Virus record (IMG/VR): IMGVR_UViG_3300020044_004791
Location: 1 to 25,865 of that record
Length of the DNA stretch: 25,865 nt
Strand: one strand, 5' to 3'
Source: a virus
Lineage: Duplodnaviria; Caudoviricetes
The position numbers and the translations under genes were made by a program. Below the pieces are notes generated by a model. That model was given only the letters and a program-made list of their open reading frames with translations, had not been told where the DNA came from and ran no database searches. The stretch's first letter is position 1; each line of letters opens with the position of its first letter. This document shows, in pieces, positions 1-9,442 of this stretch.

Positions 1-359
1 TCTTCCTGTGCTTTCTCTTTATTCTCCCAAGGAAAGACGATCCATTCATCGCCTTCAATGACTTCAGACGACGCAATGCCTATCGGAGAGCATGTCGCCC
101 TACGAAGAAGCACGATCGAGGGAGTGTTCCCGTATTTGATTTTCCAGTTGAGGATTGTTTTTCCTGAGTCTGCAATATCGTCAACGAACACGCTTTTTCT
201 CGTGGGTCGCTCAACGAGGGGGAGTCCAAACTTATGGGATAACGCCACAGCAAAAACAAGACCACCCCTAGGGATAGGGCAGAAACTATCACAAATTGGC
301 TTTTCGATTCTAGAAAGTGCTTCATCAAATTCCTCCCATGTGTAATGCCTGATCTTCAT
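1..359 (-). CDS. Purine (xanthine-guanine type) phosphoribosyltransferase, 3'-truncated by window edge
   Basis: Not in the ORF track. Manual translation from ATG at 359 (ATGA overlap with the queD stop) gives MKIRHYTWEEFDEAL...PIPRGGLVFAVALSHKFGLP...VFVDDIADSGKT...EWIVFPWENKEK. It has the PRGG loop, the PRPP-binding VDDIADSGKT motif and the XGPRT-like WIVFPWE. No stop before base 1. Confidence 0.88.
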   Translation of the reverse strand, partial: MKIRHYTWEEFDEALSRIEKPICDSFCPIPRGGLVFAVALSHKFGLPLVERPTRKSVFVDDIADSGKTILNWKIKYGNTPSIVLLRRATCSPIGIASSEVIEGDEWIVFPWENKEKAQE

Positions 360-772
360 ATTGAAAAACTCGCCGAACATTTGCGGGTCTCATCGACAAT
401 ACATTCGACAAGAGTGACGCCCGTGTCTTTCAGCAATTCGGGGGCGACGACTTTGACTAGATGAATGGCAATGTTCTCTGCGGTAGGGTTGAACGGGACT
501 TCAACGACCGTTGGATCAATACCTTTGAGAGCCGCCGCCAAGGGGTCAAGGGTATAGACGAGGAAGTGATGATCCCAATTGTCTTCAAGCCACATACACA
601 AAGTAGACTTGATTACTGAGAAGTCAATGACTCGACCAATTTCATCAAGGGAGGGGGCTTCGCAATGGAAGTGAACTCGATAGTTGTGACCATGAAGGTG
701 TTGGCATTTACTCTCATGATTGGTCACTCGATGACCTACTGAGATGTCGTGGTAACGGATTGCTTTGATCAT
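356..772 (-). CDS. queD: 6-carboxy-5,6,7,8-tetrahydropterin synthase (QueD/PTPS family)
   Basis: Motifs CQHLHGHNY, IDFSVIK, DH and NPTAENIA; adjacent to folE and queC. Confidence 0.93.
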   Translation of the reverse strand: MIKAIRYHDISVGHRVTNHESKCQHLHGHNYRVHFHCEAPSLDEIGRVIDFSVIKSTLCMWLEDNWDHHFLVYTLDPLAAALKGIDPTVVEVPFNPTAENIAIHLVKVVAPELLKDTGVTLVECIVDETRKCSASFSI

Positions 773-1431
773 TTAATTAACCTCAAAAATTCGGCTCTCG
801 CCTCGGGTTTATCACGGAACACGCCACGCATCACGCTTGATGTCATTGCAGTATCCGACTCTTTGACACCTCGCCATGTCATGCACTGGTGTTTTGCCTC
901 GATGACGATTGCTAACCCTCTAGGGGCAATCAGTCTCTCGATGATGTCTGCCAATTGGACTGTGGCTTCCTCTTGAATTTGTGGGCGAGCCATAATCCAA
1001 TTAACGAGACGCACAAACTTACTGATCCCAATAACACGATCAGAAGGCAGAATGCCGATCCAAGCACGACCAGTAATAGGTACAAGGTGATGGCTACAAG
1101 CAGATCGAATAGTGATAGGACCGAGAGTATAGATTTCGTCAAATTGTTTGGCATTAGGGAACTCCGTAATTTTCGGTGGCTCAACATAACGGCCTGAGAA
1201 CACCTCTTTGATATACATCTTGGCGACTCTCTTGGCAGTCTCTTGAGTGTTGTGATCATTCTCAATGTCAATGATCAAGGTCTCGAGGACATCTTTGATC
1301 TTTCCCTCGACTTCATTCTGTAATAGTTCTAATTCATTTCCTTGAAAATACTTAGCGATATTGTCATTGGCAAAGAAAGAGCCGCCATCTTGCTTGATGC
1401 GGTTTTTAATTGATTCGGTCAAAATACTCAT
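769..1431 (-). CDS. folE: GTP cyclohydrolase I
   Basis: Motifs TAKRVAKMY, SACSHHLVP, SKFVRLV, RPQIQE and HQCMTWRGV. Confidence 0.96.
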   Translation of the reverse strand: MSILTESIKNRIKQDGGSFFANDNIAKYFQGNELELLQNEVEGKIKDVLETLIIDIENDHNTQETAKRVAKMYIKEVFSGRYVEPPKITEFPNAKQFDEIYTLGPITIRSACSHHLVPITGRAWIGILPSDRVIGISKFVRLVNWIMARPQIQEEATVQLADIIERLIAPRGLAIVIEAKHQCMTWRGVKESDTAMTSSVMRGVFRDKPEARAEFLRLIK

Positions 1432-2174
1432 TTGGTCAAGCCCTCGTAATTAGGTGTGTTTGGCAATTCCATCAAGCCCTCTTGCCATGCTCTCACGATC
1501 AAAGGGTCAGGCGTATGAGCATCGAGGAATCCTTGCGCTCGTAATAGTGTCGCATGATCTTTGCCAATGGGGGGGTATTGCCCATCGTAGGCAGTATGAG
1601 AAAAGGCAAGAGCATCCATGCAACCATCAAGCGTTTTTGCAAGATGAATCGATGCCGCCTTGCTCAACCACATCAATGGGGTGTGAATCTTAAAGTGCTT
1701 GATGCCAAGAGCCTCATTGATCGTTTCTTGTTGAGAGTCAATGAATTGCTGACGGCAATCAGGGTAATTGGCATTGTCTTGCTGACATACGCCCGTAACG
1801 AGATCAAAGCAGTCTAGTTCTAAAGCATAGTTTGCGGCAATCGTCAGGAAAAAAGCATTCCTCATTGGCACGAATGTTAATTCGACTCGATCTCCAATGA
1901 TCTGATCCATCTCGTCAAAATTTTCATATTGCTCAAGAGTCTCATTGGGATTCGTCAGAGGGCTTCGACCTTTGAGGATAGCGGGAACATGAACGAGATG
2001 CCAAGATTCGACTCCCGCCATCTCTGCAATGGTTGCCGCCGCCTCAAGTTCTCGATTGTGCTTTTGTCCATAATCAAATGTGATGGCATGCACCTCATCG
2101 AAATTCTCCTTTGCCCAATAGAGGCAAGTCGTTGAATCTTGACCCCCTGATAAAACAACCATTACTTTTTTCAT
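1428..2174 (-). CDS. queC: 7-cyano-7-deazaguanine (preQ0) synthase
   Basis: PP-loop VLSGGQDSTT, FDYGQKH, FVPMRN, YPDCR and TPLMWLSK. Likely start is MKKVMVV at 2174 (ATGA overlap with the upstream stop); the ORF track starts at 2192. Confidence 0.93.
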   Translation of the reverse strand: MKKVMVVLSGGQDSTTCLYWAKENFDEVHAITFDYGQKHNRELEAAATIAEMAGVESWHLVHVPAILKGRSPLTNPNETLEQYENFDEMDQIIGDRVELTFVPMRNAFFLTIAANYALELDCFDLVTGVCQQDNANYPDCRQQFIDSQQETINEALGIKHFKIHTPLMWLSKAASIHLAKTLDGCMDALAFSHTAYDGQYPPIGKDHATLLRAQGFLDAHTPDPLIVRAWQEGLMELPNTPNYEGLTK

Positions 2175-3019
2175 CTCTGTTTCCTTTCCCAAAATTCATA
2201 CGCCTCAATGGCGAGTTTTGCTTGCCAATCAGAAGCAACCGCCATGAACATCCTTGTTCCAAGATGCTTTGTGATCTCTCTCTGATACTTGACGAACGAT
2301 CTGAATGCCACTTTTTCGGTTGGATAATCGCCCTTGCCTGAGTTTTTCCAATTGCCAGCGATTGCCAGTTCGGCGGGATCGACCTCATATTCTTTGAGGA
2401 TTCGCAAGACATCTGCCGATGGCTTTTTCATGAAGTCTTGCTTCGAGCAAGTTACAAAATTGCCATTGCGATCGTAAAGTTTCATCGAGCCGTAAATTAA
2501 AGCCCCCGCCCAAGATGAGGAGTCGCACATATAGGGCTTGTAATGTTTAAGGTAATCCATCGATGTGAAACCGAGCCAATGCACTTGCCTTTTGCCAACG
2601 TGCTTCATGATCCCATTGATAAAGCCTTTATTTTTAGGAGTGCCGACTAGACCGCCAATGCCGACTACATCAGAGGTCTCAAAATATTTGTCAAGCATTT
2701 TGATGTCTTCGCCTCGGGTAAAAATTGGGACTGGCGTGTAGCCTTTTGAAAGCATCGTTTCATAGTTCCTGATCGTGCCTTCAGGGTCGCCAATTACATC
2801 AAGCGTGAAATAACGCCAAGGTTTGAATGGAAGAGAATCGAGGAATTTGCAATAGTCATCAAGGGCAATTGGTTTTCCTGCCTTCCAAGCCGTGAACGCT
2901 CCTGAATCAAGAACGAATCTGACTTTGTCTTGATTCGCTTGAAGTACCTCAATCAATTGTCGACTCATGTAAGGATAAGCCGCCAAAAGATTCAATCGAG
3001 GAGGCTCACTTAAATTCAT
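2171..3019 (-). CDS. dpdA: DpdA-like DNA 7-deazaguanine transglycosylase (TGT fold)
   Basis: TGT-like motifs LDSGAFTAW, LDVIGD, GIGGLV, VHWLG and DSSSW; directly upstream of queC-folE-queD in a phage. Confidence 0.85.
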   Translation of the reverse strand: MNLSEPPRLNLLAAYPYMSRQLIEVLQANQDKVRFVLDSGAFTAWKAGKPIALDDYCKFLDSLPFKPWRYFTLDVIGDPEGTIRNYETMLSKGYTPVPIFTRGEDIKMLDKYFETSDVVGIGGLVGTPKNKGFINGIMKHVGKRQVHWLGFTSMDYLKHYKPYMCDSSSWAGALIYGSMKLYDRNGNFVTCSKQDFMKKPSADVLRILKEYEVDPAELAIAGNWKNSGKGDYPTEKVAFRSFVKYQREITKHLGTRMFMAVASDWQAKLAIEAYEFWERKQR

Positions 3020-3554
3020 AAGAGATGCCAGCCTGATCTAAGGCGTTGGTAATAGTCTCATGAGCAAAGTCTTTTTCCTCTTGGCTCACTCCGATCTTGA
3101 TTGTTGAAAGAATGCCATCGAGATTGCTTCCATCTTTTTCATGCAGATCAATATTTGATTGCCAACCTTCAAAAAGAACATTCAATTCCTCAGGACTAAA
3201 GCCTGTTGCAATCTGCTCAATGTCAGTCAAACCCTCAAGTTCAAGTTTTAGCAGTTCATCATCCCATCCCGAATTGAGAGCGATCTTGTTGTCGGCAATG
3301 ATGTATGCCTTTCGCTGGCTCTCTGAAAGATGTGTCAATCGAACGCAAGGGATTTTGTTTAGTTCTAATTTAAGAGCCGCCAAGACCCTGCCATGCCCTG
3401 CAATGATGGTCGATTGCTCATCGATCAGGACGGGGTTATTGAACCCAAATTGCCGAATCGAAGCGGCGATTTGTGCCACTTGAGCCTCTGAATGAGTGCG
3501 AGAATTGTTTGCGTAAGGGATAAGTTTGTCTGTCGAGACTTCTTCAATTTTCAT
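3006..3554 (-). CDS. ParB/Srx N-terminal domain protein
   Basis: LIPYANNSRTHS, SIRQFGFNNPVLID, IIAGHGR and AYIIADNK, typical of phage ParB-N domains; short acidic C-terminal tail. Confidence 0.88.
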   Translation of the reverse strand: MKIEEVSTDKLIPYANNSRTHSEAQVAQIAASIRQFGFNNPVLIDEQSTIIAGHGRVLAALKLELNKIPCVRLTHLSESQRKAYIIADNKIALNSGWDDELLKLELEGLTDIEQIATGFSPEELNVLFEGWQSNIDLHEKDGSNLDGILSTIKIGVSQEEKDFAHETITNALDQAGISYEFK

Positions 3555-3863: not shown

Positions 3864-4837
3864 GCTGTCAAGAGATCAAGAGCATTATTTTTCACTCGAT
3901 CGCCTTTTCCGAACCAAGCCGAATCAAGACGGGTGTCATTCGAGCGAGATGGCAAGTGATGATCGTAATACTCGGTGACGGCGTTGAGCATCGCCCATTT
4001 TGTATGCCCTACCATCTCAGCGCCCTTTGCCTCGCCATCAAAGAGGCTCAAAATCTTGGCGTAGGTGCGATTTTTGGTGATGTCTGAGGCTTCCCCCTTG
4101 ACCTGAGAGATTGGAGCGATCAGAGAGGCTAGGAATGCCTCTGCCGCCTTGGCATTCATCTTTTGTGATTGCAGATGCTTTGCCATCTCCATAAATGAAC
4201 CAAAAGATTCGACTGCGCCCATCAATTTGGTTTGCAAAAGGTCAGGGTTGAACTTTGAGAGGTGAGTGAACGAGACTACGCCTTGCGATTGGCTCTTACG
4301 CATTGCCATTTGAAGAGTATTGTTGCACACGACCCGAACAGAAGTAAATCGAGCAGTCGTAGCCAATGAGCGATCGCATGAGGTCGAGAGCAAAAGATAC
4401 CCGCCTACGGTGTCATCCTTGGCAACATCGCCATATCGACCAGTTTCAGCCAATGCCCACAACTTCTTGCCGCCCTGAAGAGTGCCAGCGACTTGAATTT
4501 TGAACCCTGCTACATCAACGAGATTGCGAAAGAACTCGAGGACTTCACGGGGCTGAACCGCATGATAGCGATCTGATACGACAGAGAGGGGGGCTTTGGT
4601 ATCTGAGCGATACAAGACATTTTGACCAGCGAAAGTCTCGATGCCTCCCAAGAATTGATCGTCTGTGCGATAGACCACAGGGGCTTTCTCAACAGTCCAA
4701 TTCATGCCTGCTTGAACCGCCCAAGTATCGATTGATGAATCCTGCTCGATTGCTTGACCTAAGCCGTGCCAAGGGGTCTCGCCAACGAATGCAGTCTCTG
4801 CGAAGCCGTTTTCTCTGATTGTGATTAAGTGTGCCAT
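3860..4837 (-). CDS. DUF932-family phage/plasmid protein
   Basis: ETPWHGLG, VSDRYHAVQPREVLEFF, AGTLQGGKKLWALA, RVVCNNTL and WAMLNAVTEY. Start reassigned to MAHLIT at 4837, which has the RBS CACGAAAAGGA at 4846-4856. Confidence 0.88.
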   Translation of the reverse strand: MAHLITIRENGFAETAFVGETPWHGLGQAIEQDSSIDTWAVQAGMNWTVEKAPVVYRTDDQFLGGIETFAGQNVLYRSDTKAPLSVVSDRYHAVQPREVLEFFRNLVDVAGFKIQVAGTLQGGKKLWALAETGRYGDVAKDDTVGGYLLLSTSCDRSLATTARFTSVRVVCNNTLQMAMRKSQSQGVVSFTHLSKFNPDLLQTKLMGAVESFGSFMEMAKHLQSQKMNAKAAEAFLASLIAPISQVKGEASDITKNRTYAKILSLFDGEAKGAEMVGHTKWAMLNAVTEYYDHHLPSRSNDTRLDSAWFGKGDRVKNNALDLLTA

Positions 4838-4871
4838 TTTGAATTTCCTTTTCGTGAATGAATAATGATGA

Positions 4872-5045: not shown

Positions 5046-5066
5046 GATTGATTCCTTTCGTGATGA

Positions 5067-5297: not shown

Positions 5298-5321
5298 GAC
5301 GACTCCTTATCGATGAGAAGT

Positions 5322-5350: not shown

Positions 5351-5495
5351 CAACTCTTTGTAATAATGTCCTCCCAAGCAAGTCGGGTAAAGATTGGGAA
5401 TGCTGGCTCAAGATGAGGTTACGCCCCTACCCTTGCCTACCCCTTGCCTAAGGCAAAAAGATCGCAGGATGAGCCGATTTCGGGGGTCTGAGGGC

Positions 5496-5520
5496 AAAAA
5501 AAACCCCTCATTGCGAGGGG
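5496..5520 (-). terminator. Intrinsic terminator of the ssb operon
   Basis: Minus strand CCCCTC-gcaat-GAGGGG followed by T8. Confidence 0.85.
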
Positions 5521-5615
5521 AAAGTCTCAAGGGAGGTGAGACAACTGCAAAGGGTGGGGGGCATGACCACGAAAAGGAGTATGTTTTTTTGGGTGCATCC
5601 ACCCGCCAGCCCCCC
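5496..5615 (-). ncRNA. Candidate structured sRNA / 3'UTR RNA with two anti-Shine-Dalgarno loops
   Basis: Stem GGGGGGC/GCCCCCC (5609-5615/5556-5562) encloses the hairpin GGGUG-GAUG-CACCC and ACUCCUUUUCGUGGU. A second hairpin is GUCUCA-CCUCCCU-UGAGAC (5524-5542), followed by the terminator. Confidence 0.6.
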
Positions 5616-5620
5616 GTAAA

Positions 5621-6022
5621 TCAGAACGGAATGTCGTCATCCATATCATCAAAAGAGGTCGGCTCGGCAGAGGGCTTGGCAGAGGGCTTAGATTCGCCCT
5701 TTGAGCCTAGCATCTGCATTTTCTCGCCAATGACTTTGGTCACATAGCGATCGATCCCGTCTTTCTGATATTTCTCGGTTTTGAGTTTGCCCTCGATGTA
5801 GATCGATTGCCCTTTCTTGAGCCACTCGCCACAGACTTCAGCCAATTTGCCGAAGAATACCACGTTGATCCATTCGGTGACTTCTTTTTGTTCGCCGTTT
5901 TTGTCTTTGTATTTTTCCGAAATGGCGATACTGAAATTGACCACCGCCTTGCCGTCGGGCATGAAGCGCATCTCAGGGTCTTTCCCGAGATTGCCAATGC
6001 CTATGAATTTATTTACTGCCAT
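5621..6022 (-). CDS. ssb: Single-stranded DNA-binding protein
   Basis: [40 protein letters not shown] and C-terminal DDDIPF. Confidence 0.97.
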
Positions 6023-6024
6023 GA

Positions 6025-6651
6025 TTATTCTCCTAGTTTGATGATTAACGATTCGACTTCATCCAAGAATTTGAGGGTCTCAGATTCCATCTCTTTGATC
6101 AAGTCCTCATCACGGCTAGTGCGAATGATGAGCAATTGATTCCTTAAAGGGAGGCGAGGATCAAAAGAGATGAAGTCACACCACTCTCGCCCCGTCACCC
6201 ACAACTGACATTGAATCTGCTTCATGTATTCAGCAGGAATCTTGCCAGCAAAAATGTAGTCGAGATGGGTCGTCGTATTCGGACACTTCACCTCGACCAA
6301 TCCATTGTCGGCTACCAATCGATCAGGAGATACACCAAGCCACTTGATTTCAGGGTGAAGCCAAAAGCCTGTTCGATCAGTCAAGACATCGGCTTTCGCC
6401 TCATACGCCATCACGGCAAATTGCTCTTGCTCGATTCCCCACTCCATCGCCGAATTGGAATACGACTCAGGCGATGTATTGGTAAGTCTTTCAGCAACGA
6501 TCCGAACTTTGTATTTGTATCGGGTTACGGCTTCCCCTGCTTTGCCCTTTGCCATGACATCAGCCATGTTCGAGGCAGTCACATGACCAAGTCGAGCCGC
6601 TTTCCATTCGTCAGATCCTTGCTCGATGTTTTTAAAGATTTGCTCGATCAT
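6025..6651 (-). CDS. YqaJ/lambda-type recombination exonuclease
   Basis: [33 protein letters not shown] and YMKQIQCQL. Confidence 0.93.
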
Positions 6652-7235: not shown

Positions 7236-7553
7236 TTAAATGTCGTCCCGATCGTCACCGATCAAGCCATTGTTGTAGCGATCAGCCGCTTCATTCTCAG
7301 CCCATAGGTCGAGTTGCTCGGCTACCGCCTCAAAGATCAATTCGCCCAAGCGATGCTTGTCGCCAGTCGCAAGGGCTTGCTCGATCTCAGTCTTTGCCAT
7401 GTGCATGCAATCATTGGCGATGGCATCCACAAAGACATCGAACTTTTTAATGTCATACTCATCCTCAAGCAGTCTCTCGACCTCTTGCTCGATGGCATGA
7501 TCACGCTCTGCCGCTTCCTGATATGGCTGTTCAAGCCAATCGTCGTAGTTCAT
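7236..7553 (-). CDS. Acidic hypothetical early protein
   Basis: 105 aa, very D/E-rich; RBS AAAAGGAGG; first gene after the leftward promoter. Confidence 0.75.
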   Translation of the reverse strand: MNYDDWLEQPYQEAAERDHAIEQEVERLLEDEYDIKKFDVFVDAIANDCMHMAKTEIEQALATGDKHRLGELIFEAVAEQLDLWAENEAADRYNNGLIGDDRDDI

Positions 7554-7570
7554 GATTCCTCCTTTTCGTT

Positions 7571-8005: not shown

Positions 8006-8040
8006 TGAGGTTGTCTTCAACCACGAAAAGGACTTTCTCA

Positions 8041-9154: not shown

Positions 9155-9188
9155 GAGACAAATTCTTAATCACGAAAAGGAAAACAAA

Positions 9189-9404: not shown

Positions 9405-9442
9405 GATGCCAATTACAAAATTAACCACGAAAAGGAATCCCG

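Follow-up and report, generated by a model that had tools for sequence, protein, structure and literature searches.

Few cases of early-gene shut-off are known to us in phages without a CI-type repressor, and that of T4 is carried out by a protein nuclease; P4 CI RNA is a further phage RNA for comparison. According to the available sections of PMC3014915, T4 RegB silences early mRNAs, including its own, via the Shine-Dalgarno sequence, with S1 as a cofactor. The C4 RNA of phages P1 and P7, as set out in the accessible text of PMC5320573, has a GG-led closing stem and is released from a longer precursor by RNase P of the host; its loop partly occludes a ribosome-binding site (RBS), with a specificity that differs between the two phages. 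Bacterial RNase P recognises RCCA and also processes C4 RNA (PMC11143913, in its available part). P22 sar, lambda OOP and aQ, and 24B_1 likewise repress phage genes by pairing; each is directed at one transcript, mostly in the lysis-lysogeny decision, and none of them, in the portion of PMC12197685 at hand, reads a tag shared by several genes. Lastly, STAXI is a pseudoknot motif found near the ssb genes of mobile elements, as described in excerpts of PMC2864571.

The window considered here, i.e., the whole stretch of DNA that was analysed, is a virus record of 25.9 kb (25,865 nt). It contains a leftward recombination operon (a 105-aa gene, Sak, YqaJ and SSB), a rightward operon (RusA, a DUF1376 initiator-like gene and small genes), more leftward early genes (DUF932), a 7-deazaguanine gene cluster and lysis genes. 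The acidic 105-aa protein that heads the recombination operon (window 7236-7553, minus strand) matches nothing in Pfam or PHROG, and its gene is tagged in many family members; its place in the operon, we presume, resembles that of lambda gam. Separately, queD, folE, queC, a TGT-like gene and a ParB-like gene at 356-3554 (minus strand) likely form a 7-deazaguanine DNA-modification cluster. The motif TAATAGTC occurs six times in the window versus 0.4 expected (3050, 3855, 7595, 7609, 7908 and 7989), with four of the six copies within promoter-like intergenic stretches, and is likely a phage promoter or operator motif distinct from the RBS tag treated below.

Behind ssb lies a phage RNA family that is apparently uncatalogued; the comparative evidence that it pairs with tagged early mRNAs is strong (Table 1). 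Like C4, the RNA would pair its seed over the RBS, as judged by sequence and covariation. C4, however, comprises three stem-loops with two target-pairing loops, a' and b', and acts in prophage immunity with an antirepressor, whereas here there is a single seed, the second stem is a pseudoknot, the third hairpin is optional and up to 10 genes are tagged. The context differs as well, with neither PF03374 (ANT, the antirepressor) nor PF00589 present in five near-complete genomes of relatives. The C4 model RF01695 gave no match at E<=1 in the window and none at gathering score in 36 loci, and a C4 search of the five genomes came back blank, as did its controls. RegB would be a functional analogue only: it is a protein that cuts GGAG, while the RNA would read a tag of 9-11 nt by pairing; the genome search for RegB (PF10715) was blank, and its controls were too. 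STAXI consists of two or three tandem pseudoknots with UUCG loops, whereas the present element has a single knot within a closing stem, plus a seed; identity with STAXI was rejected on the single knot and the lack of an Rfam match. More generally, scans against Rfam gave no match to the core in the window and 36 loci. No literature record of the RNA was found among the titles and abstract openings judged, the candidates in PMC10690425 may include it, and the available parts of PMC5737381 and PMC12197685 describe nothing like it.

Table 1. Features of the RNA, of its surroundings and of the tagged leaders in the window.
Feature	Position	Strand	Detail
ssb	5621..6022	-	PF00436, E 1.5e-34; final gene of gene105-sak-yqaJ-ssb, operon reads into the RNA
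Conserved RNA core, about 63 nt: closing stem, pseudoknot, A-linker, seed, 3' ACC	5553..5615	-	homologues and predicted fold
P1 closing stem, 5' arm; begins 5 nt past the ssb stop	5605..5615	-	predicted fold
Hairpin S1 (4-5 bp); loop is the 5' strand of pseudoknot stem S2 (5600-5596)	5591..5604	-	predicted fold, covariation
A-rich linker, loop 3 of the predicted H-type pseudoknot	5584..5590	-	
Pseudoknot stem S2, 3' strand; 4/5 pairs, one G-A mismatch	5579..5583	-	sequence
Seed UCCUUUUCGUG, complement of the RBS tag	5568..5578	-	enrichment, homologues, duplex energy
P1 closing stem, 3' arm, one bulged U	5556..5567	-	predicted fold
3' ACC overhang (RCC), as in RNase P substrates	5553..5555	-	processing inferred
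Separable downstream module: GCAGUUGUC motif, CCUCCCU-loop hairpin (5542-5524), intrinsic terminator (5520-5504 and U-run)	5496..5550	-	
Tag, RBS of DUF932 gene (ATG 4837)	4846..4856	-	-17.6 kcal/mol; PF06067
Weak candidate: three-A tag ahead of 57-aa gene	5053..5062	-	-14.0 kcal/mol, rank 10/36
Weak candidate: one-mismatch tag, 76-aa gene	5302..5312	-	-14.5 kcal/mol, rank 9/36
Tag, RBS of 105-aa first recombination-operon gene	7559..7569	-	exact; -17.7 kcal/mol; gene tagged in many relatives
Tag, RBS of DUF1376 replication initiator-like gene (ATG 8041)	8020..8032	+	-21.0 kcal/mol; PF07120
Tag, RBS of 71-aa gene (ATG 9189)	9169..9181	+	-18.7 kcal/mol
Tag, RBS of 113-aa gene (ATG 9443)	9424..9436	+	-21.3 kcal/mol

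The multibranch stems previously drawn for 5496-5620 of the minus strand were reproduced by RNAfold (-46.5 kcal/mol, z -2.62), and 2 of 200 shuffles were equally stable. An earlier note on this DNA had taken all 120 nt as one unit and had missed the pseudoknot; the conserved part is the core at 5553-5615, from which 5496-5550 is separable. The 15-mer to which that note drew attention does lie at 5580-5566 of the minus strand. As for its being an open loop, positions 5578-5571 are open, but 5567-5566 are paired inside the closing stem, which leaves a usable seed of about 11 nt (5578-5568). In a fold model without the pseudoknot, the unpaired probability is 0.90-1.0 at 5578-5571 and only 0.2-0.3 at 5570-5568.

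The loop of hairpin S1 is predicted to pair with bases past the linker, giving an H-type pseudoknot, with the S2 stem of the window (4/5 pairs) among the weaker ones of the family. In a sequence-only alignment of 39 of 51 rows, a set that had passed a filter asking for some S2 pairing, 86.5% of cells were paired in S1 and 95.1% in S2. Two-sided changes occurred there at 8/8 pairs (4 in S1 and 4 in S2), and the covariation score was reached by 0 of 500 shuffles, with slid controls paired at 37-49%. Because this set was pre-filtered for S2 pairing, we also relied on a set of 24 distinct loops chosen without any pseudoknot filter, in which own loop/linker pairing exceeded swapped pairing (mean 9.3 vs 6.8; p 2e-5, a value that ignores the relatedness of the loops). 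RNAalifold returned no structure on alignment A2, in which P1 is probably out of register; P1 pairs were therefore left out of the pair counting, and P1 covariation was judged by reading the sequences.

Other identities for the core were considered and set aside. We take it to resemble a preQ1-I riboswitch, and the phage encodes queC, folE and queD; that assignment was rejected, as Rfam gave no match, the loop varies freely with its partner, and the element lies behind ssb, at least 2.5 kb from the que genes and not in a 5' leader. A tRNA or tmRNA was rejected likewise (ARAGORN reported 0 genes in the window and seven member loci), as was tmRNA mimicry, given that G-U is absent at stem position 3 in member rows and that ARAGORN was blank.

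Homologues were gathered through SSB and YqaJ searches (152 loci), followed by pattern scans with a structural filter, which together gave at least 51 distinct homologues of the core in phage contigs, many of them close strains. Several of the SSB/YqaJ relatives have the same post-ssb layout, in which the stem sequences differ and the seed is the same. From the first candidate set, 9/46 rows were left out (8 by eye, lacking the hairpin-linker layout, and one truncated duplicate); from the second, 16/66 were left out for want of a CCUUU seed or for poor layout, locus L646 among them, and L040 was restored. As CCUUU was required of members, more distant seeds would escape. The family RNA measures 63-85 nt. 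A pyrimidine precedes P1, a GGGG-led stem of 10-13 bp; within P1 come the 4-bp hairpin S1, an A-rich linker, the segment pairing with the loop of S1 and, in some members, another hairpin, with the seed placed last. The 3' half of P1 and RCC complete the element.

It lies directly behind ssb or a short ssb-like gene at 27 of 37 loci examined, behind an intervening small gene at 6, and could not be called at 4. Each of the five near-complete genomes has one antisense copy with this fold, at the ssb site; their tags mostly cluster around the RNA, with few outliers (e.g., three in G010), and G006 has a single tag only. Up to 10 genes per phage are tagged, on both strands, with L495 having one tagged gene only; among them are the gene that heads the recombination operon, the initiator and DUF932 genes, those for annealing proteins (Sak or Erf) and numerous small genes of unknown function. 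One relative has the Betaproteobacteria-1 RNA of Rfam elsewhere in its locus, a weak hint as to the host. A scan of bacterial genomes, covering half of the collection, gave no seed-bearing member among the at least 120 stretches listed, and annotated phage records yielded distant matches only. The element at 6001-6070 (plus strand) of L646, a GC-rich phage, has the same stem, hairpin, A-linker, pseudoknot-like pairing and ACC end without the CCUUU seed, and is possibly a distant family member with a different target.

The ground just past ssb is shared with other elements. The separable module of the window recalls anti-Shine-Dalgarno sRNAs of the suhB/MmgR type in its CCUCCCU loop followed by a terminator, a likeness that concerns this module and not the core; suhB (RF00519) scored 26.4 bits against 5489-5549, with a cut-off of 41 bits (E 0.12). 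A GYRGUWGYC motif lies behind the core in 5/51 members, and the stricter GYRGUWGCC occurs in 25/36 element-less relatives, in 24 of those behind a -10-like box. A candidate second small RNA, made up of a -10-like box, GYRGUWGCC and a terminator, is seen at 5540-5548 (minus strand) of the window and just past ssb also in L001, L004, L009, L010, L015, L088 and L090. Downstream of ssb, L042, L045, L051 and L074 carry another stem-closed RNA-like element (GGGGGAAAGCGGAUG ... GCGAGUACCCC, then ACC), for which L042, L045 and L074 gave no Rfam match. About 170-480 nt past the ssb stop, L098 has repeated structured units with GCAUGGGGAUUG and GGGUUAGCGCCG motifs and then a terminator; these units had no Rfam match at gathering score. 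The post-ssb site seems to host interchangeable small RNAs.

On the target side, ACGAAAAGGA occurs six times in the window versus 0.06 expected, a count that 0 of 100 shuffles reached. Five of the six matches are in sense orientation ahead of early-gene ATGs and one is antisense after ssb, which bears out the single antisense copy described previously; the exact sites precede the ATGs at 4837, 7553, 8041, 9189 and 9443, and the late region of the window past 9.5 kb holds no copy. All seven target sites listed in the earlier note are present, 4-8 nt ahead of an ATG, but they are not of one strength by duplex energy: the five exact sites are strong, and those at 5302 and 5053 are weak. Paired with the seed, the former occupy ranks 1-5 of 36 leaders (-21.3 to -17.6 kcal/mol), one of these 36 having carried a wrong start coordinate, while the latter score below yqaJ, one late gene and the holin. 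The 76-aa gene with the 5302 site is the first gene downstream of the RNA, and the equivalent position is usually tagged in relatives.

The co-variation of loop and RBS envisaged for relatives is indeed found, with seed and tag changing together across four seed types. A phage's own seed matches its RBS tag at 139/147 sites and 59/62 tree tips; four-U seeds go with four-A tags (64/70 sites) and three-U seeds with three-A tags (70/72 sites). The seeds CCUUUCAAG and CCUUUGCGUG were found by seed-blind scans, and their tags were predicted before look-up: the loci with CCUUUCAAG (L109, L110 and L534) carry TTGAAAGG tags (4/4), and the first downstream gene of L495, whose seed is CCUUUGCGUG, has ACGCAAAGG (1/1). 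L203, with a seed ending in CGUA, has TACG tags (2/2), and L040 (CGUU) has one AACG tag, to be read beside the 28/132 tags of ordinary CGUG seeds that also deviate at the position varied in these two loci. On the 62-row tree, 11 seed changes, 11 tag changes and 12 joint changes were counted, and the 59 matching tips compare with a best of 47 in 3000 independent simulations under a simple in-house model. This tree is a gappy supermatrix of mosaic genomes with much missing data, from which 2/64 rows were dropped for low coverage, and its mismatching tips are L050, L028 and L051. An earlier, smaller tree was underpowered (2/3 changes matched), and independent-pair tests were not significant alone (seed/tag, 4 same, 0 opposite and 1 unchanged, p 0.125; presence, 3:0, p 0.25).

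The tag is also absent from most RNA-less relatives, with one clade excepted. Across 36 element-less ssb loci (298 kb) there are 0 four-A, 5 three-A and 4 TTG tags, and L048, which is complete and element-less, has lost CG at a site where its close relative L050 keeps it. The exceptions are (i) L050, which has a three-U seed yet one four-A tag, (ii) L051 and its kin, which have TTGAAAGG tags and no element, and (iii) the clade of L027, L028 and L030, with 2-4 three-A tags on early genes. In the L028 genome (G001; 78% complete, four tags) no element was found, and the tags of this clade would reflect either a recent loss or an RNA located elsewhere. Since seed and tag change together, the RNA likely silences the whole early-gene set at once.

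A sequence like the tag is, in terms of 16S pairing, a working Shine-Dalgarno core with a 5' extension. The spacing from GG to ATG is 6-9 nt in 131/139 sites, and the A after GG is kept at 36/38 target sites of 18 members whose seed cannot pair with that A, which points to the tags being real Shine-Dalgarno sites whose core is retained irrespective of the seed. The likeliest outcome of pairing is therefore antisense repression of early translation. Of the tagged sites, 37 lie upstream in the operon of the RNA, 81 downstream of it and 21 on the opposite strand, so that the RNA would have to pair mostly in trans.

In our model, the seed of the 5553-5615 RNA would pair in trans with the tag CACGAAAAGGA in five early-gene RBSs, and pairing over a functional Shine-Dalgarno site would most simply block translation initiation. 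An RNA freed at the end of the early operon and aimed at the first gene of that operon, as well as at the initiator, would afford delayed negative feedback, and a type of barcode distinguishing early phage mRNAs from host and late mRNAs would be provided by the CG(A)n stretch that precedes the Shine-Dalgarno core. It is thus probable, on the comparative evidence, that this small pseudoknotted phage RNA represses tagged early mRNAs as an early off-switch. Against this stands the conserved pseudoknot, which plain antisense blocking would not require and which may point to a different mechanism. The suggestion that the region has no visible repressor gene agrees with the five near-complete relatives, in which tyrosine integrase, S24 repressor peptidase and above-cut-off HTH_3 were not found. 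No dedicated partner protein tracks with the RNA except a tail-fibre-like one (6 element-bearing vs 2 element-less genomes); any partner would thus be a host factor.

The main rival to repression builds on the pseudoknot, which would bind protein S1 or the 30S subunit and deliver ribosomes to the tagged early leaders; the RNA would still pair with those leaders, but act in trans as a guide that promotes their translation. The pseudoknot is conserved as strongly as the seed; protein S1 binds H-type pseudoknots, one of which is needed for standby loading at tisB (PMC7708055, in its accessible part); and the requisite partner would be a host factor, given that no phage protein bar the tail-fibre-like one co-tracks. 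Activation nonetheless appears unlikely: the seed covers the very Shine-Dalgarno core that targets keep for the ribosome (36/38), an RNA arising at the tail of an operon that is headed by one of its targets would come late for an activator, and RNA-less relatives retain the same genes with ordinary RBSs.

Repression might otherwise serve to maintain a non-integrating carrier state, to limit the initiator, or to keep out superinfecting relatives bearing an identical tag, in which case the seed types would correspond to immunity groups. Four seed types with matched tags recall the specificity of C4 in P1 versus P7 (available text of PMC5320573), the initiator gene is tagged in many members, and neither an integrase nor a CI-like gene was found in the five near-complete genomes. 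We consider an immunity role improbable, however, as the PF03374 antirepressor is absent from those same genomes, only two seed types are common, which is little diversity for immunity groups, and the carrier state is a conjecture here.

A further alternative turns on the strand used: the motif would be a DNA operator or an RNA site of the RegA/RegB/Csr kind, with the post-ssb copy being a plus-strand decoy or a plain RBS. A reverse-complement fold is possible, whole-element folding energy favours the ssb strand in 19/51 and the other strand in 32/51, and the window has an ATG after the motif. That plus-strand ATG, though, is found in only 8/51 listed members; the 12-codon ORF at 5581 is thus not conserved, and the reading of the motif as its RBS, which the earlier note had entertained, fails. 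It is the ssb strand that carries the -10 boxes, RCC and terminators, outer P1 has 13 G-U versus 0 A-C (counts biased by the structural filter), the distance from tag to ATG is fixed, and no protein co-occurs, all of which makes a protein site very improbable. That the element is a plain terminator or an mRNA-stabilising 3' structure with incidental complementarity, for which the U-run directly behind P1 in many members might speak, is scarcely credible in view of the invariant seed core, the four seed types with matched changes and the covarying pseudoknot.

With regard to biogenesis of the predicted RNA, a pyrimidine occupies position -1 on the ssb strand in 49/51 listed members, and RCC follows the stem in 12/12 members reached by protein search and in 51/51 overall, the latter partly demanded by the search patterns. 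TANNNT -10 boxes lie 5-8 nt upstream on the ssb strand in 11/51 listed members; the window copy has no such box upstream, so its RNA would derive from the operon transcript. Terminators are on the ssb strand, P1 being followed directly by a U-run in many members. The RNase P substrate features present are G+1, a 10-13 bp stem and 3' RCC, with an A as fourth base in only 6/51. The RCC end fits the RCCA interaction of RNase P, from which we infer a processing step. The A-rich linker and U-tail are compatible with an Hfq-dependent sRNA, and nothing more.

A broader interpretation, doubtful at present, is that of an RNA-guided, genome-wide translation switch, in which a pseudoknotted, tRNA-ended guide on protein S1 or the 30S subunit would read a barcode set in the Shine-Dalgarno region of early genes and steer ribosomes onto or away from the tagged mRNAs; were this true, the seed would be reprogrammable through single-base changes. 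Ultimately, a single RNA of 63-85 nt seems to govern as many as ten genes, located on both strands, via a co-evolving tag. The four natural seed/tag pairs are ready material for swaps, and the RNA could serve as a compact orthogonal translation switch.
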